64,000 nt of DNA from Candidatus Peregrinibacteria bacterium (lineage in GTDB: Bacteria > Patescibacteriota > Gracilibacteria > UBA1369 > LOWO2-01-FULL-3): positions 209,695 through 273,694 of the forward strand of contig JABILX010000001.1 of assembly GCA_018654255.1 (NCBI GenBank), written 5' to 3'. The notes below the pieces were generated by a model. The model did not search any database. It was not told the origin of the DNA and saw nothing but the letters and a program-made list of their open reading frames with translations. This document shows positions 37,500 to 62,792 of this stretch, piece after piece (position 1 is the first letter of the stretch; the number at the start of each line of letters is the position of its first letter). Both the position numbers and the translations under genes were made by a program.

Positions 37500-37529
37500 G
37501 TGCCTTAGAGAAACCCAAGCCACCCAATC

Positions 37530-38396
37530 CTAAAACCCGCCCTCTTCAAAAACCTTTCTGAAATACCATTTTATCAAATCCCAATTTCCATCAGCAGGAA
37601 CTAATGTGTAAGCTTGAAGTTTATTTTCACAATCAGGTCGTGGGGAATCGGCCAGAGGAACTCCAACACCAGAATCACCCACAGAAACTTCCTCGACACT
37701 AACACTAGCGGTCCACTCATCAATCATCTTCGTGCATTCCTCCTTGGCTATATATTCTGGTACAGACAAAATATTTCCAGTCGACAAAACATATCCAGAA
37801 TTGATATCAAAATTTTGATATTTGAAGTAGTAGGCCATCGCCTCAGAAATAGAAATATCAGTTTCAGTCTTATTCAACACAGTCCGAATGATGTCATACA
37901 AAGTTCCAGCATCTCCAAACCCAAACTCACGAGCCTTTTTTTGAATAGCCCCCAGGATCATGTGCTGCCTCTCTGCGCGAGCAAAATCAGAACTAGTGTG
38001 ACGAGAACGCGCAAGACGCAAAGACTCCTTACCCATCAGATGATAATCCCCAGGGGCATAGTTCAGCGTGCCCCAAACACCATTGTCCAAAGTCTTGTAA
38101 GTTGGATCAATCACAGCACTGTCCAGATGAACATCAATTCCACCAATAATATCAACCACATCTATGAAAGCGTACATATCGATCAGAATATATTTATCCA
38201 ATTCATATCCAGTAATTTCTCCCAAAACTCTTTTGAATTCCTCCATCCCAAAATTCATCACATAATGATTGATTTTCCGGCCGTTATAATACAGGTCACG
38301 TGGAATAGAAATCATATCGACTGTGCGATCATTCTCATCAATATGAGCAAAAATCATAGTATCAATTAGGCTCCCATGTTTCCCTGCAATTAACAC
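37530..38396 (-). CDS. LytR-CpsA-Psr (LCP) domain ORF with no start of its own; probably expressed as a frameshift fusion with 38459..39748
   Basis: DTMIFAHID....MISIPRDLYY LCP core. The first strand FNVLIAG begins upstream of the annotated GTG. The frame is open to 38531 with no ATG, GTG or TTG. Confidence 0.6.
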   Translation of the reverse strand: MLIAGKHGSLIDTMIFAHIDENDRTVDMISIPRDLYYNGRKINHYVMNFGMEEFKRVLGEITGYELDKYILIDMYAFIDVVDIIGGIDVHLDSAVIDPTYKTLDNGVWGTLNYAPGDYHLMGKESLRLARSRHTSSDFARAERQHMILGAIQKKAREFGFGDAGTLYDIIRTVLNKTETDISISEAMAYYFKYQNFDINSGYVLSTGNILSVPEYIAKEECTKMIDEWTASVSVEEVSVGDSGVGVPLADSPRPDCENKLQAYTLVPADGNWDLIKWYFRKVFEEGGF

Positions 38397-38458
38397 ATTG
38401 AAGGTTCCCTCCTGATGAGAAGGCGTGTCTGAGAAGGCAGGAACGCTAGAAGGTAAAT

Positions 38459-39748
38459 TTAAAGTTTTTTTTTGAGCCCTTCTTCGAAGAAAAGCAAATT
38501 CATCGTATCGGCCCCCTCTGGCCCAACAACCTCAACAAGCCCAGAGCTTTTTTCTATTACAATCGACCCAAGCAAAACCCCACTCGCATCTCCATAAAAA
38601 ATATCATAATAAAATCTGTATTCATCTTCACGAGCCAAATTGTTAACATACAAAGAATTCTCTTCCAAAAGCAATTTGAATCCATTGTCTTCAAAAGTCT
38701 CTGCTAGCACCAATTGCGCTTCGATTATATTTTTCTGCACAGCAGGTAAAACATCTAATTTTTCGATAAAAGGCGGTAGAGAAGTCGCAAGGTCAGTGAC
38801 TTGCAAAACAATATTTTCATCATCCCTAGAATCATGCAGCGTGATAGAAAAATCTTCCAAACTCAAGATAACCTGAGCCACAACCTCGGTCGCTATATTC
38901 TGAATATCAAATGTCAAAGCCGAATCAGTTTGAGTAGGCTCGGCAACAAAAGTTAATTGTTCAGCAGCAAGCAGATCAACCATCTCCTGCTTAACAAAAG
39001 ACTCAACGATATAAATATTTGAAGCTTCAATCTTTTTGATATTAGTCAAAATAGTACTCAGATTATCACGAAGATAAATCAAGACATCGCCAGCAAACTC
39101 ATCAGTATCAGTTGATACAACAGACGTCGAGTCAGAAGCAGCCTCAAGAACCATATCTCCAGTCTCCTTATTGAGAGTAAAACTCAAAACCTTGCCAACT
39201 TCGCTGTCCATAATTTCCAAATAATAATTTTCTGCTTTATCAGAAATTTGGCCAAGAATAAGGCCCTTATCTTCCAAGAAATAAGAAAGTTCAGAGTTAG
39301 AAGCCAAGCCTCCCAAGAAAGCATAATTCTTATCAAAAGCTGCTTTTTTGCGTTCAATGTCTCCTAGATACCCAACATATTTGAAGAGGGAAATTTGCAA
39401 TTCATTTTCATTCTCATCACTAACAGAAGGACTCTCGTTAGAATCAGATGAAGACGAATACTGGCGAGTTGGAAGAAGTAAATAACCTCTCACTTCATTC
39501 AAATCCTCACCAATCATCTGAGAAACCTCAGTCAGCTTCCCAACTTCATCAACCAAACTAGAACCTCTCAAAGACAAACTAGTTAACCCACCGGTCATTC
39601 GAGCAACCTGGAAATATTGGATGAGAAAAAACGCAACAATAACACCAATAATTATGTTTTTCCTGGTTAAATGGGGCTGCCAGTTCTCTGGTACCTTATT
39701 TTTTGCCCCCGTGGTCAATTTCGAAATTTGCTTTTTAATTTTCTTCAC
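38459..39748 (-). CDS. membrane-anchored extracytoplasmic protein (likely N-terminal part of the LCP protein)
   Basis: 429 aa with N-terminal TM IIIGVIVAFFLIQYF. It ends ...GLKKKL* across an A9 tract (plus-strand T9 at 38465-38473). Confidence 0.65.
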   Translation of the reverse strand: MKKIKKQISKLTTGAKNKVPENWQPHLTRKNIIIGVIVAFFLIQYFQVARMTGGLTSLSLRGSSLVDEVGKLTEVSQMIGEDLNEVRGYLLLPTRQYSSSSDSNESPSVSDENENELQISLFKYVGYLGDIERKKAAFDKNYAFLGGLASNSELSYFLEDKGLILGQISDKAENYYLEIMDSEVGKVLSFTLNKETGDMVLEAASDSTSVVSTDTDEFAGDVLIYLRDNLSTILTNIKKIEASNIYIVESFVKQEMVDLLAAEQLTFVAEPTQTDSALTFDIQNIATEVVAQVILSLEDFSITLHDSRDDENIVLQVTDLATSLPPFIEKLDVLPAVQKNIIEAQLVLAETFEDNGFKLLLEENSLYVNNLAREDEYRFYYDIFYGDASGVLLGSIVIEKSSGLVEVVGPEGADTMNLLFFEEGLKKKL

Positions 39749-39858
39749 CAGAGAATCTTATAAAAAATCTTGTCTTTATGCAAATTTTTGTATAGAATCC
39801 CGTTTGCATCGTGACTGATTTATTCAATCACTCATATGCAAAGTTTCATTGAAAACTA

Positions 39859-39933
39859 GCGGGTGTCGTATAAAGGCTATTACCACAGCCTTCCAAGCTG
39901 TTGATACGGGTTCGATTCCCGTCACCCGCTCCA
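39859..39933 (+). tRNA. tRNA-Gly (anticodon UCC), CCA encoded
   Basis: Acceptor GCGGGTG/CACCCGC. Anticodon arm ACAGC-CTTCCAA-GCTGT. T-arm ACGGG-TTCGATT-CCCGT. 75 nt. Confidence 0.9.
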
Positions 39934-39941
39934 ATCTTTTT

Positions 39942-39966
39942 ACAGGTTCAATTCGCCCCACCCCAC
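39942..39966 (+). repeat. decayed copy of the tRNA-Gly 3-prime half
   Basis: ACAGGTTCAATTCGCCCCACCCCAC versus tRNA ACGGGTTCGATTCCCGTCACCCGC, about 20 of 25 positions matching. Confidence 0.6.
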
Positions 39967-39970
39967 GAGG

Positions 39971-39990
39971 AGGTTCGAACTAGAATTCAA
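39971..39990 (+). repeat. GTTCGAAC-core element, upstream type
   Basis: AGGTTCGAACTAGAATTCAA, closely similar to 40916-40935 (AGGTTCGAACTGGATTTCAC). Confidence 0.55.
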
Positions 39991-39999
39991 ACAGGAGGG

Positions 40000-40028
40000 T
40001 TGACTTCAGGGGGGGGGTATGTTATAAT
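40000..40028 (+). promoter_or_regulatory. promoter TTGACT-N17-TATAAT with a G9 tract in the spacer
   Basis: ttgacttcagggggggggtatgttataat, with the G-run at 40009-40017. Confidence 0.5.
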
Positions 40029-40065
40029 TACAGTGTTGGTCAAATAAAAAATAACCAAAACAAAA

Positions 40066-40599
40066 ATGGAAAACCTAAGGAATGATCCTCCAAAAGATCC
40101 TCCAAAAGATCCAAAGAAAAAACCAGATAACGTTGAAGACTATCCATACATAATCACAGGGACTGGTATTCAGAGAAAGGAACTTCAGGAGTCGGTTGGT
40201 AAGCCAAAACATGTGCCGGAAAAGAAATCCTGGAAAGTTAAAGAAGTTGGAGAAATTACACCAGAGGTTGCTGCGTTAGAGGATAAACTAGTGAAAGAAG
40301 AGTATAATAAGTGGGCCGCTGATCCAGAATCACTCAAAAATACAAGATTGGTTTTTGGACCTGATGCCAAAATCCTGCCATATGAAAAATGGATCTCATC
40401 CCAAAGAATGTCGCAATTAAAATTCGAACCCGAAAATGAAGGGGTTGAGGATGCAGAAGAAGACCAATTACCCAAAAATTACTTGAGAGTGGAATATCAG
40501 TCTTACTACGGAGAAAAGAAGAAGATCAATGAAACTCCAGATAGTTATTTTGAATGGCTGAAAGCAAGGGAACGAAAACTGGGAACTTCAGAAGAATAA
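40066..40599 (+). CDS. hypothetical protein (177 aa, charged, no TM)
   Basis: Clean ORF with a promoter upstream, a repeat element and a hairpin downstream. Confidence 0.6.
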   Translation: MENLRNDPPKDPPKDPKKKPDNVEDYPYIITGTGIQRKELQESVGKPKHVPEKKSWKVKEVGEITPEVAALEDKLVKEEYNKWAADPESLKNTRLVFGPDAKILPYEKWISSQRMSQLKFEPENEGVEDAEEDQLPKNYLRVEYQSYYGEKKKINETPDSYFEWLKARERKLGTSEE

Positions 40600-40609
40600 T
40601 TTTCATAAA

Positions 40610-40640
40610 CAGTTCGAACGTCCTCCACGCTGCGGCTCCA
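40610..40640 (+). repeat. post-ORF element CAGTTCGAAC...GGCTCCA
   Basis: CAGTTCGAACGTCCTCCACGCTGCGGCTCCA, starting 11 nt after the stop. Confidence 0.55.
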
Positions 40641-40642
40641 TG

Positions 40643-40677
40643 AAAAAATCACCCCGCCGCAAGGTGGGTTATTTTTT
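40643..40677 (+). terminator. imperfect hairpin flanked by A- and T-runs
   Basis: aaaaaatcaccccgccgcaaggtgggttattttttt. Confidence 0.4.
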
Positions 40678-40704
40678 TATCTAGGGGTCGGCAGAAACGA
40701 AGCC

Positions 40705-40788
40705 TCGGGTGAGAATTCCCGTTGCTTGAATATGCGTATGAGTGAAACGAATCGGATAGTCAAGTACGACGAAGTGCACCCGCTCCAA
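40705..40788 (+). repeat. decayed tRNA-Gly 3-prime region (T-arm-like hairpin, about 53-nt insert, exact acceptor end)
   Basis: TCGGGTGAGAATTCCCGT resembles the T-arm. CACCCGCTCCAAT at 40776-40788 is identical to 39923-39935. Confidence 0.55.
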
Positions 40789-40915
40789 TGAAGACCTCCA
40801 GGAACACTCAAACCTCCTTTTCCCGCTACACCAAGCCAAGAACTCGGTTCTAACCATAATTTTAGTTAAATTACTCTGATTTAACTTTTACTAAACCTTC
40901 CATTCCTATGAACAA

Positions 40916-40935
40916 AGGTTCGAACTGGATTTCAC
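40916..40935 (+). repeat. GTTCGAAC-core element, upstream type
   Basis: AGGTTCGAACTGGATTTCAC. Confidence 0.5.
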
Positions 40936-41018
40936 AATTAATAAAGTGAATCGGTCACTGTAAGATCATAGCTTTTACACACAAAATACGGTATAATTAA
41001 CAGATAAACAAAAACAAA

Positions 41019-42122
41019 ATGACAGACCCAGAAGACACAGAAAAAGACGGACCGCAAGAAGTCCGACAAGAAAACGAACTTCCAGAAGCTCCTCTTTACG
41101 GAGATAAAAGAATCGTACAAACAGTTAATGCCACAAGAAAATCTCTATCACTTTCTCTTTCAGGAACAGAAGAAGTAGAAGAAAGGGATACAGAGAAAGT
41201 TTTCAGAATAAACGAAAGAATAATAACGAACATGATAGTAGATAGTTCAAATACGATAAAATCTTTCCAAATCACAGTAACAACAGAACAAGGTCACAAA
41301 ACAATAAATCTAATGGGTTATATCCCACAAAATATAAAAATAGAACTAGCCATTGGGCCCCACTTTATTCCAGAAGGGAAAGATGGCAGAAAGACAATTC
41401 AAATATCAGAATTAGATTTGAAACACATCCCAGAAAAAGGTCTGATAAGTGCCTTCCACGAAATAGGACATGCAATAGACGAAGCAAAACACCCAGAAAA
41501 GTATCCAAAAGATAACGATAGAACATTGCAAATAATCGAAGCAGGAGAAAAAGGCGCGAACGAGGAAATGTCAAAAATGCTAGACCAAATAAGAGAGGAA
41601 GAAGAAGTTGAAATAATCCCAAAAGTTCGATTAGAATCTCTAAACAAACTTCAGCTTCTATCATGCCAAGTAGACAGTATTTTTAGAGACAAACATCCAG
41701 AAAAACCCAATTTTCTCCCACTCCAATACGACGAAGCCCAATGGGAAAGAAGATTTAATATACACAAAGAAACCAGGGAAGAATTAAATGTGCAAATAAG
41801 AGCTTCAGCAGATTCGTTGTTCTCAAGACTAGGAGAAAAAGGCGTGAACAACTTAACCGCAAATGAAATCCTGCAAATTCTGAAAGAAGAATTCCCAAGC
41901 ATTTACATTGAAGAAGCAATATTTTTCAACGATTTAGAATCATTTGCAGTACAAATATTTTTAGCAAGATTCAACCCAAAAACAGGTAAAAGTAGAATGA
42001 AAAAATCATTTCAAAGAAAACTTAGTCGGATAATGTTGGATGAAGAACTAGGATTGATAAACTATGTCGCGCATCAAAAACTTTTAACAGACGAATACAG
42101 AGCTGAAGCAAAAGTCTTCTGA
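41019..42122 (+). CDS. hypothetical protein with HExxH motif (AFHEIGHAIDE)
   Basis: 367 aa with no TM or signal peptide. The zinc-metallopeptidase-like motif is the only recognisable feature. Confidence 0.6.
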   Translation: MTDPEDTEKDGPQEVRQENELPEAPLYGDKRIVQTVNATRKSLSLSLSGTEEVEERDTEKVFRINERIITNMIVDSSNTIKSFQITVTTEQGHKTINLMGYIPQNIKIELAIGPHFIPEGKDGRKTIQISELDLKHIPEKGLISAFHEIGHAIDEAKHPEKYPKDNDRTLQIIEAGEKGANEEMSKMLDQIREEEEVEIIPKVRLESLNKLQLLSCQVDSIFRDKHPEKPNFLPLQYDEAQWERRFNIHKETREELNVQIRASADSLFSRLGEKGVNNLTANEILQILKEEFPSIYIEEAIFFNDLESFAVQIFLARFNPKTGKSRMKKSFQRKLSRIMLDEELGLINYVAHQKLLTDEYRAEAKVF

Positions 42123-42127
42123 TTTTC

Positions 42128-42155
42128 CAGTTCGAACATCCTCTTTTGCCAGGGT
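42128..42155 (+). repeat. post-ORF element CAGTTCGAACATCCTC...
   Basis: Starts 6 nt after the stop. Confidence 0.5.
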
Positions 42156-42220
42156 TTTATACTTTACAATTATCTTAATATGGCATATACTCAAAACAGA
42201 GCTAAACCATATTAAGCCCC

Positions 42221-43168
42221 ATGACGTATTTACCTGAAAATCTTCGGAAACAAATAGAGAAAAAACTCAAGAAACTAAACAAGCTTCGTCCGCTACCGAA
42301 AACAGCTGTAGCAAAACTTCGCGAGCAATTTGAGCTGGAGATGACGTATAACTCCAACGCAATTGAGGGGAATTCCCTTACTCTTAAAGAAACATTCTGG
42401 GTTGTTAAGGAAGGGCTAACAATCAAAGGGAAACCTCTAAAAGATCATCTGGAGGCAACCAATCACCAGGATGCTCTGGAGTATCTATACGAGCTGGTCG
42501 AGCACGAGAAAAAAGCTACAATCTCTGAGTTTTTAATAAGAAATATTCATCAACTTATAACTCAAAACATTGAAAAAGAATGGGCTGGTAAATACAGAAC
42601 AATGCCAGTAATGATTACGGGGACCAAGCACATGCCACCGAGCGCTGGAGAGGTCCCAAGTCTAATGCACCAGCTCATTGAATGGCTAAACAGAGAGGGC
42701 AAAAAGATGCCCATAATCGAAACCGCCTCCATACTCCATCACAAATTTGTACACATCCACCCATTTCTAGATGGGAATGGGCGTACAGGACGTCTTGTCA
42801 TGAATTTGTTGCTATTAAAAGCCGGTTACCCATTGGTAATTATTTTAAAAAATGATCGCAAGAAGTATTACAAAGCATTAAGAGAAGCAGATGAAGGAAA
42901 TTATGCCCCATTAGTTTTATTGATTGCACAATCAATTGACCGTTCTTTAACCATTTATTTAAAGACATTAACACCTGACAGGAAGGAAGACAGAAAAAAA
43001 TATATGTCATTGGCAGAGGCGAGCCAGATTTGTAGGTATTCTGCAAAATATTTAAACTTACTTGCGAGACAAGGTAAATTGGAAGCTTACAAAGAAGGTC
43101 GAAATTGGGTGACCACCAAAGAATCCATAGAGAAATACATCAAAGAAAGGGAAAGAAAACGAAAGTAA
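42221..43168 (+). CDS. Fic-domain protein with C-terminal excisionase-type HTH
   Basis: Fic motif HPFLDGNGRTGR. N-terminal SNAIEG inhibitory-helix motif. C-terminus MSLAEASQICRYSAKYLNLLARQGKLEAYKEGRNW. Confidence 0.85.
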   Translation: MTYLPENLRKQIEKKLKKLNKLRPLPKTAVAKLREQFELEMTYNSNAIEGNSLTLKETFWVVKEGLTIKGKPLKDHLEATNHQDALEYLYELVEHEKKATISEFLIRNIHQLITQNIEKEWAGKYRTMPVMITGTKHMPPSAGEVPSLMHQLIEWLNREGKKMPIIETASILHHKFVHIHPFLDGNGRTGRLVMNLLLLKAGYPLVIILKNDRKKYYKALREADEGNYAPLVLLIAQSIDRSLTIYLKTLTPDRKEDRKKYMSLAEASQICRYSAKYLNLLARQGKLEAYKEGRNWVTTKESIEKYIKERERKRK

Positions 43169-43184
43169 TACTATGAGACACCCC

Positions 43185-43216
43185 CAGTCCGAACATCCTT
43201 TAGCGGTGGAGCTCCA
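43185..43216 (+). repeat. post-ORF element CAGTCCGAAC...GGAGCTCCA
   Basis: CAGTCCGAACATCCTTTAGCGGTGGAGCTCCA. Confidence 0.55.
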
Positions 43217-43276
43217 AGAGTATAACCTATAGAAAAGAAGGTTTTTTGTAGGTTTACGAAAACATTGACAAAAACC

Positions 43277-43305
43277 TTTACAATTAATTGAGGTAGGGAT
43301 ATAAT
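43277..43305 (+). promoter_or_regulatory. promoter TTTACA-N17-TATAAT, leaderless geometry
   Basis: The -10 box ends 6 nt before ATG 43312. Confidence 0.5.
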
Positions 43306-43311
43306 GAAAAC

Positions 43312-44331
43312 ATGTTTAATCCAAAATATAAACTATCGGCTACTCTTCTTAAGGCTATTACAGAATGTGAGCGCTTATATGGGCAGATTGAATCATTAAA
43401 GATTCCTCATGAAATTGAACTTAATCTTGAAAGGAGTAATGAAATCAATTCTTCTTACTTTTCCAATAGTATTGAAGGGAATCCACTTTCTCTACCGGAA
43501 GTAACTAACTTGCTCTTAGACGAAAGGGTTCCAGCAAACAGAGATGAAAAGGAAATAGTTAATTATTTTAAAATTCTTAGAACTCTCCAAAAACATACTG
43601 AGGGTCAATTAACTTTACAAAAAGTCTTACAAATCCATAAAGAATTAATGTCAGGTGTGAATGATAAAATAGCTGGAGATATAAGAAATAAAACTATCGT
43701 TGTGGGGAAATATAAAAACAATAGCGGAAAAGTTGAACTTGAAATAAAGCATAATCCTCCAACCCATAAAAAAAAGGAGATTGAGCAGTTATTAAACAAA
43801 TTGATAGAATGGATAAACAAGAGCAAGGATCCGATTTTAATTAAAGCCGGAGTATTCCATCATGAATTTGTACGTATACATCCATTTGAAGATGGGAATG
43901 GACGTACTTGTCGATTGTTAACCGCATTACTCTTTATCAAAGAGGAGTACTTTATAAATAAATATTTCGTACTTGATGATTATTATGATGTGGATAGACC
44001 AGCTTATTCAGATGCTCTCCATTCCGCAGATAAAGGCAACAAAACAGAGTGGTTGGAATATTTCAGTATAGGGTGCAAATATTCACTCCAAAGCGCATTA
44101 GCTAGAGTTAAAAATGCATTAAAAACACTAAAAATAAGTGAAAGACCTACCAATAGAGAACAAGATGTAATCGATATATTGCAACAATATAAAGAAGTTA
44201 CATCCTCTGATGTAGCGAAGAATCTCAGTATTTCAAGACAGCAAGCTCATAATTTACTCAAAGGATTGAAAAACAAAGGTTTAATTGAAAAAAAAGGAAC
44301 TACAAAATCAAGTTATTATAGATTGAAATAG
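43312..44331 (+). CDS. Fic-domain protein with C-terminal winged-helix domain
   Basis: HPFEDGNGRTCR. N-terminal SNSIEG motif. C-terminal DVAKNLSISRQQAHNLLKGLKNKGLIEKKG. Confidence 0.85.
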   Translation: MFNPKYKLSATLLKAITECERLYGQIESLKIPHEIELNLERSNEINSSYFSNSIEGNPLSLPEVTNLLLDERVPANRDEKEIVNYFKILRTLQKHTEGQLTLQKVLQIHKELMSGVNDKIAGDIRNKTIVVGKYKNNSGKVELEIKHNPPTHKKKEIEQLLNKLIEWINKSKDPILIKAGVFHHEFVRIHPFEDGNGRTCRLLTALLFIKEEYFINKYFVLDDYYDVDRPAYSDALHSADKGNKTEWLEYFSIGCKYSLQSALARVKNALKTLKISERPTNREQDVIDILQQYKEVTSSDVAKNLSISRQQAHNLLKGLKNKGLIEKKGTTKSSYYRLK

Positions 44332-44388
44332 AGATCCAAGCAGAAAAACACCCAGAATCAGGACTTATTCCATTCCCCAAGCCAACAA

Positions 44389-44422
44389 TACAGGTTCGAT
44401 TAGCATCCAGCCAGGAGCTCCA
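44389..44422 (+). repeat. tRNA-T-arm-like / GGAGCTCCA element
   Basis: TACAGGTTCGATTAGCATCCAGCCAGGAGCTCCA. ACAGGTTCGATT matches the tRNA-Gly ACGGGTTCGATT. Confidence 0.5.
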
Positions 44423-44483
44423 CAAAGATTCCCATTGAGAAGCCAGAGATGAAAGGGTATCCTCTTTGCATCAAATTTATTGA

Positions 44484-46262
44484 ATGAATTTTATGGCGAC
44501 CTTGTTGCAAATTAATGGATTATCCAAGTCCTACGGGGCACAAACAATCTTAGAGGATGCTGGATTGGTTATTAATGAAAGGCAAAAAATTGGTGTGATT
44601 GGCAGGAATGGGGCGGGTAAGTCGACTTTATTTAAAATAATTGTTGGAAATGAAGAACTTGATGAAGGAACAGTTAATGTGCACGAAGGCACGAGAATTG
44701 GCTATTTAACCCAACATAGTGAATACGAAGAAGACGAAAGTGTAATTGATTATTTGATGAGATCTAGTGGAAAGAAAGATTGGGAATGCGGGAAAATGGC
44801 AGGAAGCTTTCAAATAAAAGGAGAGCAGTTAGATGCGAAAGTAGTTTCGCTAGCAGGTGGATATCAAATGAGGGTTAAGTTGATTGCAACACTTCTAAAG
44901 GATCCAAATTTACTGCTTTTGGACGAGCCTACTAATTACTTGGATCTATCTACTCAGCTTTTGTTGGAACATTTTTTGAGAAATTATAAGGGAAGTGTTT
45001 TGCTAATTTCCCACGATCGCGAGTTTATCAAGAGAACATGCAATGAAACTGTAGAAATCGAGCATGGAAAGATAACCTTGTATCCACGTTCCATAGAAGA
45101 ATATCTAGTATACAAAGAAGAACAATTGTCGAGGATAGAGGGTCTTAATATAAAGACAGAACAAAAGAAGAAACATTTGCAGAGCTTTGTTGATAGGTTT
45201 GGGGCAAAGGCCAGTAAAGCATCTCAAGCTCAGTCCAAAATGAAACAAATTGAAAAGCTGAAGACGATTGAAGTGAATCATCCTCTGAGTACAACAACGA
45301 TAGTGATTCCACCTGCGGAAGATAAAAAGGGGATTGCTTTGAAAACAGAAAATTTGGAAATTGGCTATAGTGATAAATCGATAGCCCAGGAAATCAACCT
45401 GGAGATAGAAAGAGGCCAAAAAATCGCAGTACTAGGGGATAACGGCCAGGGAAAAACGACTTTATTGAAAACTCTTGCCGGAGAAATCGACAAACTTTCC
45501 GGAAATTACAAATGGGGGCACAATATTAAAATTGCTTATTATGCGCAGCATATACCCGCAACATTAAATTCCAATGAAACGGTAAAAGCCTACCTGAAAA
45601 GGATAGCTCCACCCGACATTTCAGAGCAGGACATTTTCAAAATGGCAGGAAATTTTCTGTTCAAAGATGAAGCGTTGAAAAAAAAGCTTCCCGTATTGAG
45701 TGGAGGCGAGAAGGCTAGGCTTTGTTTAGCAAAAATATTATTACAAAAAAATCAGGTGATTTTACTTGATGAGCCGACCAATCATTTGGATTTTGAAACT
45801 GTCGAGGCACTGGCGCAAGCGTTGAGAGATTCCAATGTGACAATAATATTTGTGAGTCATAATCGTACATTTGTGGAGATTGTGGCCAACGGTATTGTTG
45901 AAGTGAAAAATGCGAGGGTTACGCGCTACCATCATAATTACGAAGAATATGTCTATCATCTGCAAAAAAATATTGAGGAAGATCTGGGCATAATTGAGGA
46001 ACCACCTTTGAATTTAGAAAAGGAGGAGAGGAAGGCCTTGATAAAGAAGGTAAAGGAAGTGAAAAAACGATTAAAATATTTAGAAAAGGAGATCATTGGT
46101 TTAGAAGAAGAAAAAACGATTTTATTGGAGTGGTTTGAAGAAAATCCCACAGAGTATTCTGAGGAAAAAACCAAACGTTTAGCAGAAATTGAAAAGAAAA
46201 TAATTGAAAAGGAACAAGAGTGGATGGAGGCAGAGATTGATCTTGAGGTAAAGCAGGGCTGA
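44484..46262 (+). CDS. ABC-F family ATPase (two ABC cassettes, no TM domain)
   Basis: GRNGAGKST and GDNGQGKTT Walker A motifs. LSGGEKARL signature. Charged C-terminal extension. Confidence 0.85.
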   Translation: MNFMATLLQINGLSKSYGAQTILEDAGLVINERQKIGVIGRNGAGKSTLFKIIVGNEELDEGTVNVHEGTRIGYLTQHSEYEEDESVIDYLMRSSGKKDWECGKMAGSFQIKGEQLDAKVVSLAGGYQMRVKLIATLLKDPNLLLLDEPTNYLDLSTQLLLEHFLRNYKGSVLLISHDREFIKRTCNETVEIEHGKITLYPRSIEEYLVYKEEQLSRIEGLNIKTEQKKKHLQSFVDRFGAKASKASQAQSKMKQIEKLKTIEVNHPLSTTTIVIPPAEDKKGIALKTENLEIGYSDKSIAQEINLEIERGQKIAVLGDNGQGKTTLLKTLAGEIDKLSGNYKWGHNIKIAYYAQHIPATLNSNETVKAYLKRIAPPDISEQDIFKMAGNFLFKDEALKKKLPVLSGGEKARLCLAKILLQKNQVILLDEPTNHLDFETVEALAQALRDSNVTIIFVSHNRTFVEIVANGIVEVKNARVTRYHHNYEEYVYHLQKNIEEDLGIIEEPPLNLEKEERKALIKKVKEVKKRLKYLEKEIIGLEEEKTILLEWFEENPTEYSEEKTKRLAEIEKKIIEKEQEWMEAEIDLEVKQG

Positions 46263-46286
46263 CATCGTCCAAATAAAGGAGCTCCA
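46263..46286 (+). repeat. degenerate post-ORF element ending in GGAGCTCCA
   Basis: CATCGTCCAAATAAAGGAGCTCCA, immediately after the stop. Confidence 0.45.
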
Positions 46287-46333: not shown

Positions 46334-47515
46334 ATGGAATACAAAATAGACAAAATACTTTTAAATAAAATAACAGGGATCCCCATATTTTTTCTCATAA
46401 TATGGTTCATATTCCAAGCAGTTTTCACAATAGGGCAGATTCCCATGGACCTCATCGACGCAAGCATTTCAAACCTGCAAAATTGGCTCACAACAATCCT
46501 GCCTGCGAGCTTCTGGAGTTCACTTTTGATAGATGGTGTAATAGGGGGCGTCGGAGCGATGGTCGTATTCCTTCCATTAATAATAATTTTATTCTTTTTC
46601 ATATCAATTCTTCGGCAAAGCGGATACTTGGATCGTACTGCCTTCCTTTTTGAAAAAAGTTTACGGAAAATAGGCTTGAGTGGGAAAGCGATAGTTCCTC
46701 TATCTATGGGATTCGGCTGCAACGTCCCCGCGATAATGGCTCTAAAGACCCTGGAAACAAGAAGACAAAGAATCATAACAGCAATGATGATCCCATTCCT
46801 GAGTTGTAGTGCAACCCTACCTATTTACACACTTCTCATCGCGGCTTTTTTTGAAGAACGATGGAGAGGAACAATATTATTCGCACTATATGCATCAGGA
46901 ATAATTCTCTCATTCCTCACAGGATTAATCTTCCATAAATTCTTGAAGACAGAAAGGATTACAAGTCTCTCAGTCCTACCAAAATACAAAATTCCCAAAC
47001 TCAAAAACATCATTGTCTCAATTTGGGGAACAACAAAATCATTTCTAACCAAAGCCGGCAAAATAATTCTTCCTTTCTCAATAATCATGTGGCTTTTATT
47101 CACATTCCCGCAGGTGGAAGGGGTGCCTCCACAAATAGAAGACTCTTACGCCGCACAAATAGGCATGGCAGTCGAGCCGATCTTTGAACCAATCGGATTC
47201 GACTGGAGGATAAACACGGCATTGTTTGGAGCATTAGGCGCAAAAGAAATATTCATTTCAACTCTTGGGATTTTCTATTCATTGGAAACAAACACAGACG
47301 ATGGATTGATACAGGCATTGCAAAACGATCCCAATATCACCTCTTTGACTGCGGTCCTCATTTTGATATTCATGCTCATATATTCCCCGTGCATACCTGT
47401 CATAGCAACAATAAAACAGCAATTTAACACGAGGTGGTCAGTCATAGCATTTGCATACCCAACAATCCTTGCGTGGTTGGTATGTTTTGTGATTTATCAG
47501 GTTGCGACATTGTGA
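46334..47515 (+). CDS. FeoB-like membrane (gate) domain protein lacking the N-terminal GTPase domain
   Basis: The GFGCNVPAIMA motif and polytopic layout match the FeoB C-terminal region. The ORF begins at the first TM segment and no G1-G4 motifs are present. Confidence 0.65.
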   Translation: MEYKIDKILLNKITGIPIFFLIIWFIFQAVFTIGQIPMDLIDASISNLQNWLTTILPASFWSSLLIDGVIGGVGAMVVFLPLIIILFFFISILRQSGYLDRTAFLFEKSLRKIGLSGKAIVPLSMGFGCNVPAIMALKTLETRRQRIITAMMIPFLSCSATLPIYTLLIAAFFEERWRGTILFALYASGIILSFLTGLIFHKFLKTERITSLSVLPKYKIPKLKNIIVSIWGTTKSFLTKAGKIILPFSIIMWLLFTFPQVEGVPPQIEDSYAAQIGMAVEPIFEPIGFDWRINTALFGALGAKEIFISTLGIFYSLETNTDDGLIQALQNDPNITSLTAVLILIFMLIYSPCIPVIATIKQQFNTRWSVIAFAYPTILAWLVCFVIYQVATL

Positions 47516-47573
47516 AGCTCACATTTGCGAATATCCTTGCCCCAACACCGTCCAACAAAGGTATAATATCAAC

Positions 47574-48755
47574 ATGCGCACGTTGCACTCAAAAATAGAA
47601 GCAAACATCAAAAAGTTGTATCTTCACAACTTCTTTTTCGAAATGATGTTTTTCATTCCTATTTTAGTGCCTTTCTGGAGTGGTCTTGGGTTTTCTATGC
47701 AAGAAATATTATTGCTAGAGGCAGGGTTCGCCATGACATTGATGATACTGGAAATCCCATCAGGCTATTTTGCAGATATGTATGGAAGGAAAACAAGCAT
47801 GATGATTGGAGCAGTCCTAGAATTTATTGGGCTCTTGATATTCATTTTCGCAGGTAGTTTCGCGGGGTTTTTACTAGGAGAAATTGTAATAGGAATCGGA
47901 GCAAGTTTCCAATCTGGTGCAAATGAAGCATTAATGTATGACTCTTTGGTACAGCTTAAAAGAGAAAAAGAGTATAAGAAAAAACAAGGAAACTATTATT
48001 TTGCAGGGAGAATGTCTGCAGTGCTATCAAAAATACCTGGAGCACTTTTTGCTGGGATTTTCATTAAACTGCCATTCTATCTAACAATGATCCCGTGGTT
48101 TATTGCAGTAATAGTTGTGTTTAGTCTCGTAGAACCAACCATAAAGAGACAAAAATTTGAAACATGGAAGCATTTCACAAGCATATGCAAAGAAGCTTTA
48201 TTCAAGAATAAAAAATTACAAAGTTTACTTCTATACGGAGCAATCCCTCCAGGATTCTTTCTAATAACTTTCTGGTTATATCAAAAATATATGGAGACTA
48301 CACAAGTACCAATTATTTTCTTTGGCATAATTATTTCTCTCATGAACCTGACTTCTGGATTAGGGGGGAAATATGCAAAAGAAATTGAAGAAAAAATTAC
48401 ACCCAAATTAACAATCATATTAATTCCAATTACAGCAGCGTTAGTATGGGCATCACTAGCAATCTTCAGTAGTCCATATTTGATTTGGATTTTTGCAGTA
48501 GCAGCTTTTGTATGGGGCCTTCACTTGCCAATCACACAAGACTACATCCAAAAAATCACCACAAGCGACAAAAGAGCCACAATTTTATCAATTAGAAGTT
48601 TCCTAACAAGAGTTGTGTACGTAATCTTTGCCCCATTGCTAGGATGGGTGACCGACTGTTATTCAATCCAAAGCGCCTTCGGTTTTTCTGCAGGCCTCAT
48701 AATACTTTTTGGAGGAATAAGCCTCCTCCTATTGAAAAGGGGCCGTGTGATCTAA
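47574..48755 (+). CDS. MFS transporter
   Basis: About 12 TM helices. I chose ATG 47574 because TATAAT at 47562-47567 gives the same 12-nt leaderless geometry. The track start 47502 (GTG) overlaps the previous gene. Confidence 0.7.
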   Translation: MRTLHSKIEANIKKLYLHNFFFEMMFFIPILVPFWSGLGFSMQEILLLEAGFAMTLMILEIPSGYFADMYGRKTSMMIGAVLEFIGLLIFIFAGSFAGFLLGEIVIGIGASFQSGANEALMYDSLVQLKREKEYKKKQGNYYFAGRMSAVLSKIPGALFAGIFIKLPFYLTMIPWFIAVIVVFSLVEPTIKRQKFETWKHFTSICKEALFKNKKLQSLLLYGAIPPGFFLITFWLYQKYMETTQVPIIFFGIIISLMNLTSGLGGKYAKEIEEKITPKLTIILIPITAALVWASLAIFSSPYLIWIFAVAAFVWGLHLPITQDYIQKITTSDKRATILSIRSFLTRVVYVIFAPLLGWVTDCYSIQSAFGFSAGLIILFGGISLLLLKRGRVI

Positions 48756-48760
48756 ATCAC

Positions 48761-48786
48761 ACGGTTCAAACATCCTCTAGCGGAGC
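48761..48786 (+). repeat. post-ORF element ACGGTTCAAACATCCTCTAGCGGAGC
   Basis: Starts 6 nt after the MFS stop. It matches the consensus CAGTTCGAACATCCTCTAGCGG. Confidence 0.5.
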
Positions 48787-48788
48787 AA

Positions 48789-49457
48789 CTACTTCTTAGC
48801 CGCTGCTTTCTTCTTAGCCGGTGCTTTTTTCTTCGCAGGAGCCTTCTTTACAGCCGCCTTCTTAGCAACCGCTTTCTTCTTTGGCTCAGCCGTTTTCTTC
48901 TCAGCAGGGGCTTTTTTCACAACCTCTTTTTTCTTTGGTGCATCTGCCTTCTCAGGACTCAGGCGCTGTAAAAGAAATATAATTTTATCTAACTTAGCAT
49001 TCATATCGTCACCGCCCTTGTTAGATTTAGCAGGTTTTCTTGGACCTGAATCATTTCCTTTTTCAAAACAACTACTGCAATAAACAGGTTTGTCTCCACT
49101 TGGTCTGAAAGGAACCTCACAACCATTACCACAATCAGCACAAGTTGCTCTGTGCATAGTTGGGCGTCCTCGGTCATTGCCACCTCGTCCACCTCCACGA
49201 CTGTCTCGTCCGCCTCCACGACTGTCTCGTCCACCTCCACGACTATCTCGTCCACGGTCATTGCCACTGAAGTCATCATCTCTTTTGAAACAACTACTGC
49301 AATAAACAGGTTTGTCTCCACTTGGTCTGAAAGGAACCTCACAACTATTGCCGCAATCAGCACAAGTTGCTCTGTGCATAGTTGGGCGTCCTCGGTCATT
49401 GCCACCTCGTCCACCTCCACGACTATCTCGTCCTCCTCCTCTGTTGAAATCTCCCAT
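48789..49457 (-). CDS. RGG-repeat / double CxxC-x17-CxxC zinc-ribbon protein with histone-H1-like Lys/Ala tail
   Basis: The module RPTMHRATCADCGN.CEVPFRPSGDKPVYCSSCF occurs twice. RDSRGGG repeats. C-terminal KKAVAKKAAVKKAPAKKKAPAKKKAAAKK. Confidence 0.75.
   Translation of the reverse strand: MGDFNRGGGRDSRGGGRGGNDRGRPTMHRATCADCGNSCEVPFRPSGDKPVYCSSCFKRDDDFSGNDRGRDSRGGGRDSRGGGRDSRGGGRGGNDRGRPTMHRATCADCGNGCEVPFRPSGDKPVYCSSCFEKGNDSGPRKPAKSNKGGDDMNAKLDKIIFLLQRLSPEKADAPKKKEVVKKAPAEKKTAEPKKKAVAKKAAVKKAPAKKKAPAKKKAAAKK
49066..49433. repeat. intragenic 222-nt-period duplication (146-nt cores 49066-49211 and 49288-49433, 4 mismatches) plus 3 x 21-nt tandem repeat 49192-49254
   Basis: Direct comparison of the two segments. 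Confidence 0.85.
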
Positions 49458-61692: not shown

Positions 61693-62397
61693 ATGCCACC
61701 AAAACCACCAAAGACACTATTCGAAGACGATCACCTACTCGCAATCAGTAAACCGCGAGGCCTATTAACAGTTGGTAGTAAACCTGGCCAAAAAAACCTC
61801 CTAGATCAACTCAAAACTCACTACCAGAAACAAAGCATTCGTATAAGACCCTTAAACCGCCTCGATCGCGGAACTTCGGGCATCGTACTCTTCGCAAAAA
61901 CGAGAGAATGCTTCGAGAAAGCCCTTATAGGTTTCAATTCAACTCAAACTCAAAAAACATACATAGCATTAGTAAAAGGAGTTCCAAAACGTCGTTCAGG
62001 GTCAATAACTTTCCCCTTACAATCACGCCAAGACAAAAGAAAACTCCTCAAAGCAAAAACCAAATATTCAGTATTGGACTCAAAACGCATTGGCAAAGGG
62101 GCATTATCTCTAGTAGAAGCAAGAATATCGTCAGGTAGATACCACCAAATCCGCATCCACTTTACGAAAATCCACCACCCACTCCTGATGGATCGCGATT
62201 ACATGGAACGCAGAGACTACAAATACTGGGCACAAGTCGTATCATTCCGACACTTCTTCCTCCATTCAGCAAAACTCACGTTTACTCACTTCATAACAGG
62301 TGAAGAAATAACAATAGAAGACACTCTTCCAAAGGAATTCAGGAAGACTTTGAAGCTTTTTGACCTGAATTCTAAGCCTAAAAAAAACCGAACTTAA
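61693..62397 (+). CDS. RluA-family pseudouridine synthase
   Basis: LNRLDRGTSGIVLFAK and GRYHQIRIH motifs. Confidence 0.85.
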   Translation: MPPKPPKTLFEDDHLLAISKPRGLLTVGSKPGQKNLLDQLKTHYQKQSIRIRPLNRLDRGTSGIVLFAKTRECFEKALIGFNSTQTQKTYIALVKGVPKRRSGSITFPLQSRQDKRKLLKAKTKYSVLDSKRIGKGALSLVEARISSGRYHQIRIHFTKIHHPLLMDRDYMERRDYKYWAQVVSFRHFFLHSAKLTFTHFITGEEITIEDTLPKEFRKTLKLFDLNSKPKKNRT

Positions 62398-62407
62398 GTG
62401 GGGCCTT

Positions 62408-62792
<385 letters not shown>

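Follow-up and report, generated by a model that had tools for sequence, protein, structure and literature searches.

Integrons, among them the sedentary chromosomal ones and the clusters of attC sites lacking integron-integrases (CALINs), are one-directional rows of mostly single-gene accessory cassettes, each of which ends in an imperfectly palindromic site of one family; their content varies between close strains, and the row has one fixed docking point at its head. An array alike in these respects, with co-oriented cassettes, one site family and strain-variable content, occupies positions 39934 to about 48790 in a 64-kb stretch of a Candidatus Peregrinibacteria contig (GenBank assembly GCA_018654255.1, contig JABILX010000001.1; the whole stretch of 64,000 nucleotides is called the window below). 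It lies behind a gene for tRNA-Gly(TCC), and its genes are set apart by copies of a short module, F1, which resembles the 3′ end of this tRNA, and of F2, the same kind of module on the opposite strand. Like CALINs, it has no adjacent integrase. With a probability of roughly 0.6, these elements represent the two halves, left and right, of recombination sites of att type that bound cassettes stacked downstream of tRNA-Gly.

However, the array departs from integrons in several respects. First, no intI was found in the window, either by jackhmmer from an IntI-like seed or by motif scan, and in place of an attI beside intI, a tRNA gene offers its 3′ end as docking point. Second, attC sites are folded imperfect palindromes of 57-141 nt with R″/L″-L′/R′ boxes (RYYYAAC ... 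GTTRRRY), whereas the box GTTCGAAC found here does not fit GTTRRRY and the array sites fold weakly. An earlier note on this DNA, made from the sequence alone, had described the sites as neither attC nor pieces of tRNA genes and as unaccompanied by intI, and this was confirmed for the window with ARAGORN, Rfam and jackhmmer. Third, the crossover would here probably lie at the centre of the joint (GCTCCA) and not at its base. Fourth, integron cassettes are promoterless and depend on the common promoter Pc, whereas cassettes of this array have predicted promoters of their own.

A second kind of system is built on the 3′ ends of small-RNA genes. The ssrA genomic islands of Dehalococcoides are tandem integrative elements at the gene for transfer-messenger RNA (tmRNA), and the tycheposon islands of Prochlorococcus consist of stacked elements separated by partial tRNA copies (10.1101/2020.12.28.424599). 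As in the present array, the 3′ end of a small-RNA gene is targeted, arrivals are stacked, and a strain-variable island lies beside conserved genes; direct repeats of the tRNA 3′ part at far boundaries also occur here (at 40777, in the related loci L004 and L008, and at 44384-44422). The islands differ in being multi-gene elements with their own integrase and true tRNA-end repeats, whereas the array consists of single genes, has no integrase that could be found, and carries a conserved imitation of the tRNA end that is 5-6 nt longer and has an inverted partner.

Two further kinds are less close. The pdif modules of Acinetobacter plasmids and the integrative mobile elements exploiting Xer (IMEX) at dif are moved by the host tyrosine recombinase in trans. 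They are, as here, small recombinase-free modules between short inverted sites, but no 11-6-11 symmetry as in dif is evident around the junction of GCTCCA and ATCTTTTT in the array, and the target is a tRNA end and not dif. Repetitive extragenic palindromes (REP), bacterial interspersed mosaic elements (BIME) and miniature inverted-repeat transposable elements (MITE), such as the Correia elements, are genome-dispersed and species-specific. They too are short and in part palindromic, and lie between genes, at gene ends and often beside terminators; in contrast, F1 and F2 are confined to the variable regions linked to tRNA-Gly, as judged from the window and the fetched loci, and are kept across lineages.

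In bacteria of the candidate phyla radiation (CPR), genomes are very small and recognisable mobile elements few, and even so accessory genes differ from strain to strain. Full-text literature searches retrieved no description of such arrays in CPR bacteria. The host is an ultra-small CPR bacterium of the Peregrinibacteria type, in which the motif probably marks the joints of swappable accessory genes behind tRNA-Gly.

The F1 module in the window

F1 can be written as (A-run)GTTCkAAC-rTC-N9-GGAGCTCCA. It starts with a T-loop motif and ends in the last six bases of tRNA-Gly (GCTCCA), so that GTTCGA...GCTCCA is common to both, and between the T-loop and CCA it is 5-6 bases longer than the tRNA-Gly 3′ end, the terminus of which reads ...ATACGGGTTCGATTCCCGTCACCCGCTCCA. 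The resemblance to a T-loop and the excess length had been seen correctly before, but the link to the tRNA-Gly gene 700 nt upstream had been missed. This gene (Rfam tRNA, 62.4 bits) is the only tRNA found in the window by ARAGORN and Rfam (E <=10), and F1, F2 and the tRNA-like elements match no Rfam family, being tRNA-like only in the bases of the T-loop and the 3′ terminus. An origin of the elements as pieces of tRNA or tmRNA genes was rejected because tRNA-Gly is the sole gene detected and F1 is 5-6 nt too long for either 3′ end.

All copies that the earlier note had listed are present, at frequencies far above chance. The octamer GTYCGAAC has 13 strand-matches (8 sites) in the window against 2.3 expected, and none of 100 shuffles gave as many; GGAGCTCCA has five (4 sites) against 0.46 expected, and the 20-mer consensus two at <=3 mismatches against 0 expected. 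A repeat search unites the copies at 40610, 42128, 43185 and 48762 in one family (D4). Elements start 1-58 nt past the stops of gene 1, gene 2, Fic1, Fic2, ABC-F and the major facilitator superfamily (MFS) gene. The run has seven genes for its six elements, and the copies are not equivalent. Only that at 43185 is full length and unmutated, those at 42128 and 48762 are 5′ parts, and the element at 44389 belongs to a separate class that looks like the tRNA-Gly 3′ half (ATACAGGTTCGATT...GCTCCA).

Several other descriptions required revision. GTYCGAAC had been counted at six sites, all intergenic; there are eight, of which those at 84 and 23769 lie inside coding open reading frames (ORFs), while that at 62415 is intergenic. 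Three GGAGCTCCA copies do occur in spacers of the array, but a fourth lies at 318 inside a giant gene. A 'second flavour' of the motif at 39971 and 40916 exists but is the reverse complement of the first, F2 at 39934-39990 being 89% complementary to 42125-42143 (inverted pair I14). A uniform element with two palindromes was not borne out, and both palindromes are by-products of copying the T-loop and the acceptor/CCA end rather than a functional unit.

Matches to hidden Markov models (HMMs) of F1 and F2, the former built from 70 copies outside the window, all fall within 39.9-46.3 kb, with none in the other ~55 kb, and all copies lie within 9 kb after tRNA-Gly. The array is old and worn: most of its sites are truncated, the ABC-F stop codon is fused to an element at 46262, and the last F1 (48756-48790) has its 3′ end overrun at 48789 by a convergent zinc-ribbon gene. 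The sequence CACCGTCCAACAAAGG at 47546-47561, 3′ of the FeoB-like gene, resembles the middle part of F1, CATCGTCCAAATAAAGG (46263-46279), and may be a seventh, heavily decayed copy, recognised by eye and under the HMM threshold. The sequence GTCCGAAC at 62415 is outside the F1 family; it is part of a direct repeat local to 62380-62440 (CCGAACTTAAGT ... TCCGAACTTAACT), with a plus-strand ORF on either side.

The F1 family in other DNA and its tie to tRNA-Gly

Scanning with the pattern GTTCKAACRTC-N(9-13)-GGAGCTCCA gave one match among GTDB species genomes, in a metagenome-assembled genome (MAG) of Ca. Peribacteria, and 86 loci in metagenomes, from which 70 distinct 47-nt F1 contexts in low-GC contigs were obtained; the few high-GC matches are chance matches within genes. 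These 70 contexts have a sharp consensus, aaaaaAGTTCtAACaTCct..A.tatGGAGCTCCA. The pattern was not matched in IMG/VR viral contigs, and phages or plasmids as carriers were rejected on this ground and because the single GTDB match is a Ca. Peribacteria MAG.

The family is tied to one tRNA. A tRNA-Gly gene (TCC or GCC) is present in 18 of the 55 non-redundant F1 loci (308 kb), and 19 of the 27 tRNAs found in these loci are Gly. Where both occur, F1 lies on the strand of tRNA-Gly in 24/24 pairs and 0.4-4.6 kb downstream of it in 22/24, and throughout the window and the fetched loci the F1 copies are confined to the variable DNA after tRNA-Gly. As a side observation, loci with tRNA-Gly(GCC) have PNPase as their conserved neighbour across the tRNA from the array.

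The association with gene ends, on which the earlier note had laid stress, holds for part of the family. A same-strand stop codon precedes F1 by <=120 nt in 34 of 66 evaluable copies, but the start side of an opposite-strand gene adjoins it in 15, and F1 therefore marks the boundaries of units and not mRNA ends as such; the data do not support a post-stop position or an RNA role as obligatory. A terminator hairpin follows many of the outside copies, and after some of these the inverted F2 comes next. Fic is the most frequent Pfam family nearby, with 7 members among 150 ORFs within 2.5 kb of F1 (loci L014-L099).

F2, cassette joints and copies of the tRNA end

F2 starts with TACAGGTTCAATTCGCCCCACCCC, in which the T-arm and acceptor of tRNA-Gly are copied in degenerate form, and ends with GGAGGTTCGAACT, its 3′ end being the inverted GTTCGAAC box. 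The spacer ATCTTTTT and F2 stand directly after tRNA-Gly in the window, and this element comes after tRNA-Gly in L004, L008/L037 and L013 too. In better-preserved relatives F1 and F2 meet in a joint, F1 ending in GCTCCA and being followed by ATCTTTTT and F2, which forms an imperfect palindrome of ~85 nt with a 13-nt terminal inverted repeat at its outer ends (AAAAAGTTCkAAC / GTTCGAACTTTTT).

The order of parts is best preserved in L004, where tRNA, spacer and F2 are followed by a PRK gene and a joint of F1, ATCTTTTT and F2; then by an inverted 336-aa gene, F1, terminator and an X element (see below); and then by a 16-nt copy of the tRNA end, ATCTTTTT, F2, a 358-aa gene and F1. Joints of F1, spacer and F2 were also found in L064, L067, L013 and L035, and in L008 a stretch of 8 kb contains six copies of F1 and three of F2. 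Exact copies of the tRNA-Gly end, 13-18 nt long, recur inside arrays: one of 13 nt (CACCCGCTCCAAT) lies at 40777-40789 in the window, and those in L004 and L008 measure 16-18 nt. The sequence ATACGGGTTCGATT of tRNA-Gly is matched both by the 5′ half of F2 and by the element at 44384-44422.

Strain breakpoints

Relatives of the region were fetched via the 429-aa protein encoded beside tRNA-Gly, which is 93% identical in L002, 80% in L004, 56% in L012/L100 and 50% in L008. The side with LCP, TrmB, PrsW and the CCA enzyme is kept in all of them together with tRNA-Gly, and the genes after tRNA-Gly differ in each.

Strains were compared in Logan contigs from 16 public marine metagenome runs. In the commonest sister strain, L100, 1,368 unrelated nt that hold a DUF6036 gene, an F1 and a 191-aa gene replace window 39935-44424. 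The breakpoints are exact: similarity ends right after 39934, just past the tRNA CCA, and resumes at 44425, just past the GGAGCTCCA(CA) at 44422. Contigs in which sequence up to 39934, at the 3′ end of the tRNA, is linked to that from 44425 occur in 8/16 runs, in the best cases with 5-10 times the depth of the window strain, and the depth of the four cassettes and the last unit is low. An empty site, with tRNA-Gly joined to ABC-F, was rejected as the meaning of this link, because the 1,399 nt left of 44425 in contigs of runs X14 and X16 equal the 1,368 nt plus 31 nt of tRNA, as expected for the replacement seen in L100. Joining both ends of the 4.49-kb block of the window gives ...GGAGCTCCA followed by ATCTTTTTACAGGTTCAATTCG..., the cassette joint of L004, L064 and L067; recombination between the GCTCCA of the tRNA and a circular unit with this joint would be expected to give such a result.

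A further strain difference lies at the other end of the ABC-F unit. The last unit of the array is absent from the abundant sister strain (depth ~9 versus ~100), the contigs have a loose end at 46262, and where the window has the 3′ part of an F1 (46263), L100 holds the complementary 5′ part (AAAAACTTCTAACATCC).

Units moving between lineages

The ABC-F protein is normally a core translation factor. Here its unit (44425-46262) shares 93.7% DNA identity with L100 (9364-11201), while the flanking core genes share about 70%, and the difference at third codon positions is 13% for the unit versus 52-56% for these genes. The unit also occurs in L101 (10001-11782) in an unrelated locus beside PNPase, with the left edge the same within about 3 nt. 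In this array, ABC-F has the behaviour of a mobile unit.

Other parts of the array recur elsewhere as well. F1 with its terminator (40610-40680) is 91.5% identical to L085 2621-2691, where it lies between unrelated genes; homologues of Fic1 and Fic2 occur in the array of the L004/L056 lineage and in L036, respectively, the latter ending directly at F1; and a cassette common to L008 and L035 (85%) begins right after F2 in L008. An edge shared by L035, L036, L042 and L065 was rejected as a cassette breakpoint, as it is merely the start of a conserved coding region. When the whole of L002 was compared with window 37523-44887, the tRNA region and island proved 100% identical (0 mismatches in 5,139 nt from 39749), while the flanks, in the LCP and 429-aa genes, were 93% identical. 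To explain this pattern, the island as a whole may have been transferred very recently, or else the metagenome assembly may be a chimera, spliced within the 185 identical bases at the tRNA.

A recombination-site model and its alternatives

Cassettes, or recombination sites of another system, were among the options that the earlier note had left, and these fit the hypervariability of the region, the breakpoints on elements and the tie to tRNA-Gly, all of which are directly observed. Under this model, F1 would be the distal end of a cassette, imitating the tRNA-Gly 3′ end from T-loop to CCA, and F2 the proximal end, an inverted module that follows a short spacer and a second tRNA-3′-like stretch. 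The enzyme would be a site-specific recombinase, in the simplest case a tyrosine recombinase, with its gene in another part of the genome; acting in trans, it would pair the GCTCCA in the F1-F2 joint of a circular cassette with the GCTCCA of tRNA-Gly or of a resident F1 end. Strand exchange would take place at or just after this core, and cassettes could thereby be inserted, deleted or swapped while the tRNA remains undamaged. Of this scheme, the recombinase, the precise point of crossover and the circular intermediate are inferred.

Several findings speak against the model. Motif scan and IntI-seeded jackhmmer gave no tyrosine recombinase, whether in the window or in the low-GC F1 loci, and no recombinase family is among the 25 of 118 Pfam families listed for 150 array-side ORFs. 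Neither an empty site nor a circular junction was seen in the Logan contigs, where rare forms escape notice, and the strain difference is a replacement and not a clean insertion or deletion; moreover, the right breakpoint in L100 has only a degenerate core (CCCTAC). The evidence from folding is also unfavourable. As single-stranded DNA, one F1-F2 joint gave -12.6 kcal/mol (z = -2.1) and another folded like its shuffles. A small hairpin in F1 has 70% of its cells paired; among four shifted registers the figure is 51-54% for three and 33% for the other, and pairing is just as frequent (70%) in an alternative register of F1, CATC/GATG. In addition, the statement that the sites occur only behind tRNA-Gly is one about the 64-kb window and the fetched loci.

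Two structural candidates were rejected on these data. An attC-like folded hairpin is disfavoured by the weak and inconsistent fold and by the lack of conservation of F1-F2 complementarity beyond the 13-nt ends, none being seen in L013, L035 and L008; the window copies, as half-sites, show no fold. The internal hairpin of F1 was discarded because the alternative register is as frequent and covariation is unusable, since the search pattern fixed one strand.

Several other explanations cover part of the data, but none accounts at once for a consensus that is not that of a tRNA, the tie to tRNA-Gly, the occurrence with genes of either orientation and breakpoints that are exact. The first would see in the array the decayed scars of integrase-carrying islands of the tycheposon or ssrA kind, serially integrated at the tRNA-Gly 3′ end, with the integrases and the bulk of the other genes later deleted and the repeats left as relics. 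The exact 13-18-nt copies of the tRNA-Gly 3′ end at the far ends of blocks are what such islands leave behind, tandem integrations split by partial tRNAs are known from Prochlorococcus (10.1101/2020.12.28.424599), direct repeats such as GCGAGCGAGCG in the neighbouring X elements resemble integrase arm sites, and the window copies are visibly decayed. F1, however, is no decayed tRNA end: its own sharp consensus, 5-6 nt longer than the tRNA end, is kept over ~70 copies from many environments and lineages, and it is paired with an inverted partner. The units are also mostly single genes, and integrase remnants were not found in the 55 loci. Serial scars are therefore unlikely.

An RNA role would make F1 a tRNA-like module of the 3′ untranslated region that ends in CCA and serves 3′-end processing, mRNA stability or termination. 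The 34 of 66 evaluable copies within 120 nt of a same-strand stop, the intrinsic terminator behind many copies and the ending in ...GC-U-CCA, as in tRNA-Gly, would suit this role, and the C/T found opposite G at two positions of the stem makes pairing more frequent on the sense strand (70%) than on the other (56%). The 15 copies that face the start of an oppositely oriented gene do not suit it, nor does the fact that the family is confined to the DNA behind tRNA-Gly and is not a feature of gene ends at large; the inverted partner F2 sits upstream of genes, strain breakpoints coincide with elements, hairpin covariation is unconvincing, and Rfam gave no match. This role is accordingly considered improbable as an explanation of the family.

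Equally improbable is that F1, F2 and the tRNA act as portable homology arms, short homologies of 35-50 nt by which RecA, with no dedicated enzyme, swaps genes after uptake. Such an account would need no recombinase, and none lies near any array examined; whole blocks also look recently transferred, as judged from the L002 island (100% versus 93% in the flanks) and from ABC-F (13% versus 52-56%), of which the former pattern may come from a chimeric assembly across the 185 identical bases at the tRNA. However, the tRNA and F1 share just 6 identical bases at the breakpoint, which is too short for RecA, and the copying of T-loop and CCA, the fixed orientation to the tRNA and the inverted pairs would all be needless. 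Finally, selfish or regulatory repeats with no connection to gene mobility, either REP/BIME- or MITE-like or palindromic operators (GTTCGAAC, GGAGCTCC) bound by a dimeric protein, are very improbable, for although the elements are short, intergenic, partly palindromic and present in both orientations, with the 13-nt terminal inverted repeat at the ends of the joint, they are not dispersed (no HMM match in the other ~55 kb of the window), are strongly tied to tRNA-Gly and to strain breakpoints, and are kept across distant lineages, unlike species-specific REPs.

If halves of recombination sites are indeed what F1 and F2 represent, a cassette site behind tRNA-Gly would explain how CPR bacteria gain and shuffle Fic proteins, transporters, ABC-F and many proteins of unknown function, and GTTCkAAC-rTC-N9-GGAGCTCCA downstream of tRNA-Gly would be a searchable signature for mapping this accessory gene pool in metagenomes. 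It would also define a biochemical question, namely which enzyme recognises a tRNA 3′ end together with its imitation. Should a trans-acting recombinase be confirmed, the array would stand beside the integron as a second platform, similar in kind but with another site logic. More tentatively, CPR bacteria, here those of the Peregrinibacteria/Peribacteria type, may possess their own gene-capture platform, of separate evolutionary origin from integrons, with tRNA-Gly as docking point, F1/F2 as tags and a recombinase encoded elsewhere that would shift single genes into and out of the array and across lineages; this broader proposal is possible rather than probable.

Features of the array

The seven plus-strand genes after tRNA-Gly comprise two unknowns, two Fic proteins with helix-turn-helix (HTH) domains, ABC-F, an FeoB-like permease and an MFS transporter (Table 1). 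Pfam searches of the window and of the array-side ORFs (the 25 families listed of 118), motif scans and jackhmmer found no element-encoded integrase of the kind that tRNA-targeting islands carry, usually with replication or excision genes. Predicted near-consensus -35/-10 pairs, which are consensus matches only, lie directly 5′ of gene 1 (at 40000-40028, 11/12 positions), Fic1 (10/12) and Fic2 (11/12). The window sequence is not present in the metatranscriptomes of the same study.

Table 1. Coordinates of the tRNA-Gly gene, site elements and cassette genes in the window.
Feature	Position	Strand	Evidence or remark
tRNA-Gly(TCC) gene, array anchor	39859-39933	+	last six bases GCTCCA (39928-39933) common to F1 ends
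Spacer ATCTTTTT and F2 (TACAGGTTCAATTCGCCCCACCCCACGAGGAGGTTCGAACT...)	39934-39990	+	F2 HMM, E = 2e-10
Cassette gene 1, 177 aa, without Pfam family	40066-40599	+	ORF list, Pfam, promoter scan
F1, full length but mutated (CAGTTCGAACGTCCTCCACGCTGCGGCTCCA; GCGGCTCCA)	40605-40640	+	F1 HMM, E = 0.002
Bidirectional intrinsic terminator hairpin directly after F1	40641-40680	.	terminator scan, both strands
X2 element, ~95 nt conserved, possibly structured, then CACCCGCTCCAAT (40777-40789)	40681-40789	+	exact repeat; relatives
F2 3′-end remnant (AAAGGTTCGAACTGGATTTCA), 5′ of cassette gene 2	40912-40936	+	inverted pair I11 with 40597-40619
Cassette gene 2, 367 aa, without Pfam family	41019-42122	+	ORF list, Pfam
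F1, 5′ half only (CAGTTCGAACATCCTC...)	42123-42147	+	repeat family D4; F1 HMM, E = 0.07
Cassette gene Fic1, Fic and HTH_17	42221-43168	+	Pfam
F1, sole full-length unmutated copy (CCCAGTCCGAACATCCTTTAGCGGTGGAGCTCCA)	43180-43216	+	F1 HMM, E = 0.02
Cassette gene Fic2, Fic and winged helix	43312-44331	+	Pfam
tRNA-Gly 3′-half look-alike (ATACAGGTTCGATTAGCATCCAGCCAGGAGCTCCA; ATACAGGTTCGATT...GGAGCTCCA)	44384-44422	+	72% identical to F2 39941-39969 (D16)
ABC-F unit, gene 44484-46262	44425-46262	+	discrete unit, apparently exchanged recently (strain comparison)
F1, 3′ part only (CATCGTCCAAATAAAGGAGCTCCA), fused to ABC-F stop codon	46263-46286	+	F1 HMM, E = 4.6
Last unit, FeoB-like permease without G domain and MFS transporter	46334-48755	+	Pfam
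F1, 5′ two-thirds (CGGTTCAAACATCCTCTAGCGG), array end	48756-48790	+	repeats D4, D18; consensus scan

Two conserved element families of about 100-145 nt, X1 and X2, are found 3′ of F1 and its terminator and finish, except in L083, with an exact copy of the tRNA-Gly 3′ end. X1 is represented by L004 1664-1806 (-) and L037 6619-6761 and holds direct repeats GCGAGCGAGCG. X2 has relatives in L073 (1265-1376), L045 (3289-3376, -) and L083 (401-467, -); both sides of its predicted pairs are changed in 4/13, and it terminates in the tRNA-Gly copy in the window but in F1-like sequence in L083. Both families could be integrase arm sites or a small RNA.

The zinc-ribbon gene beyond the array (48789-49457, -) differs between contigs as well. 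In the best window-holding runs the contigs skip 222 nt (49131 to 49354), and other contigs differ by 33-nt steps in its Lys/Ala-rich tail (48808-48849); therefore, its internal repeats either differ in number from strain to strain or have been collapsed by the assembler.

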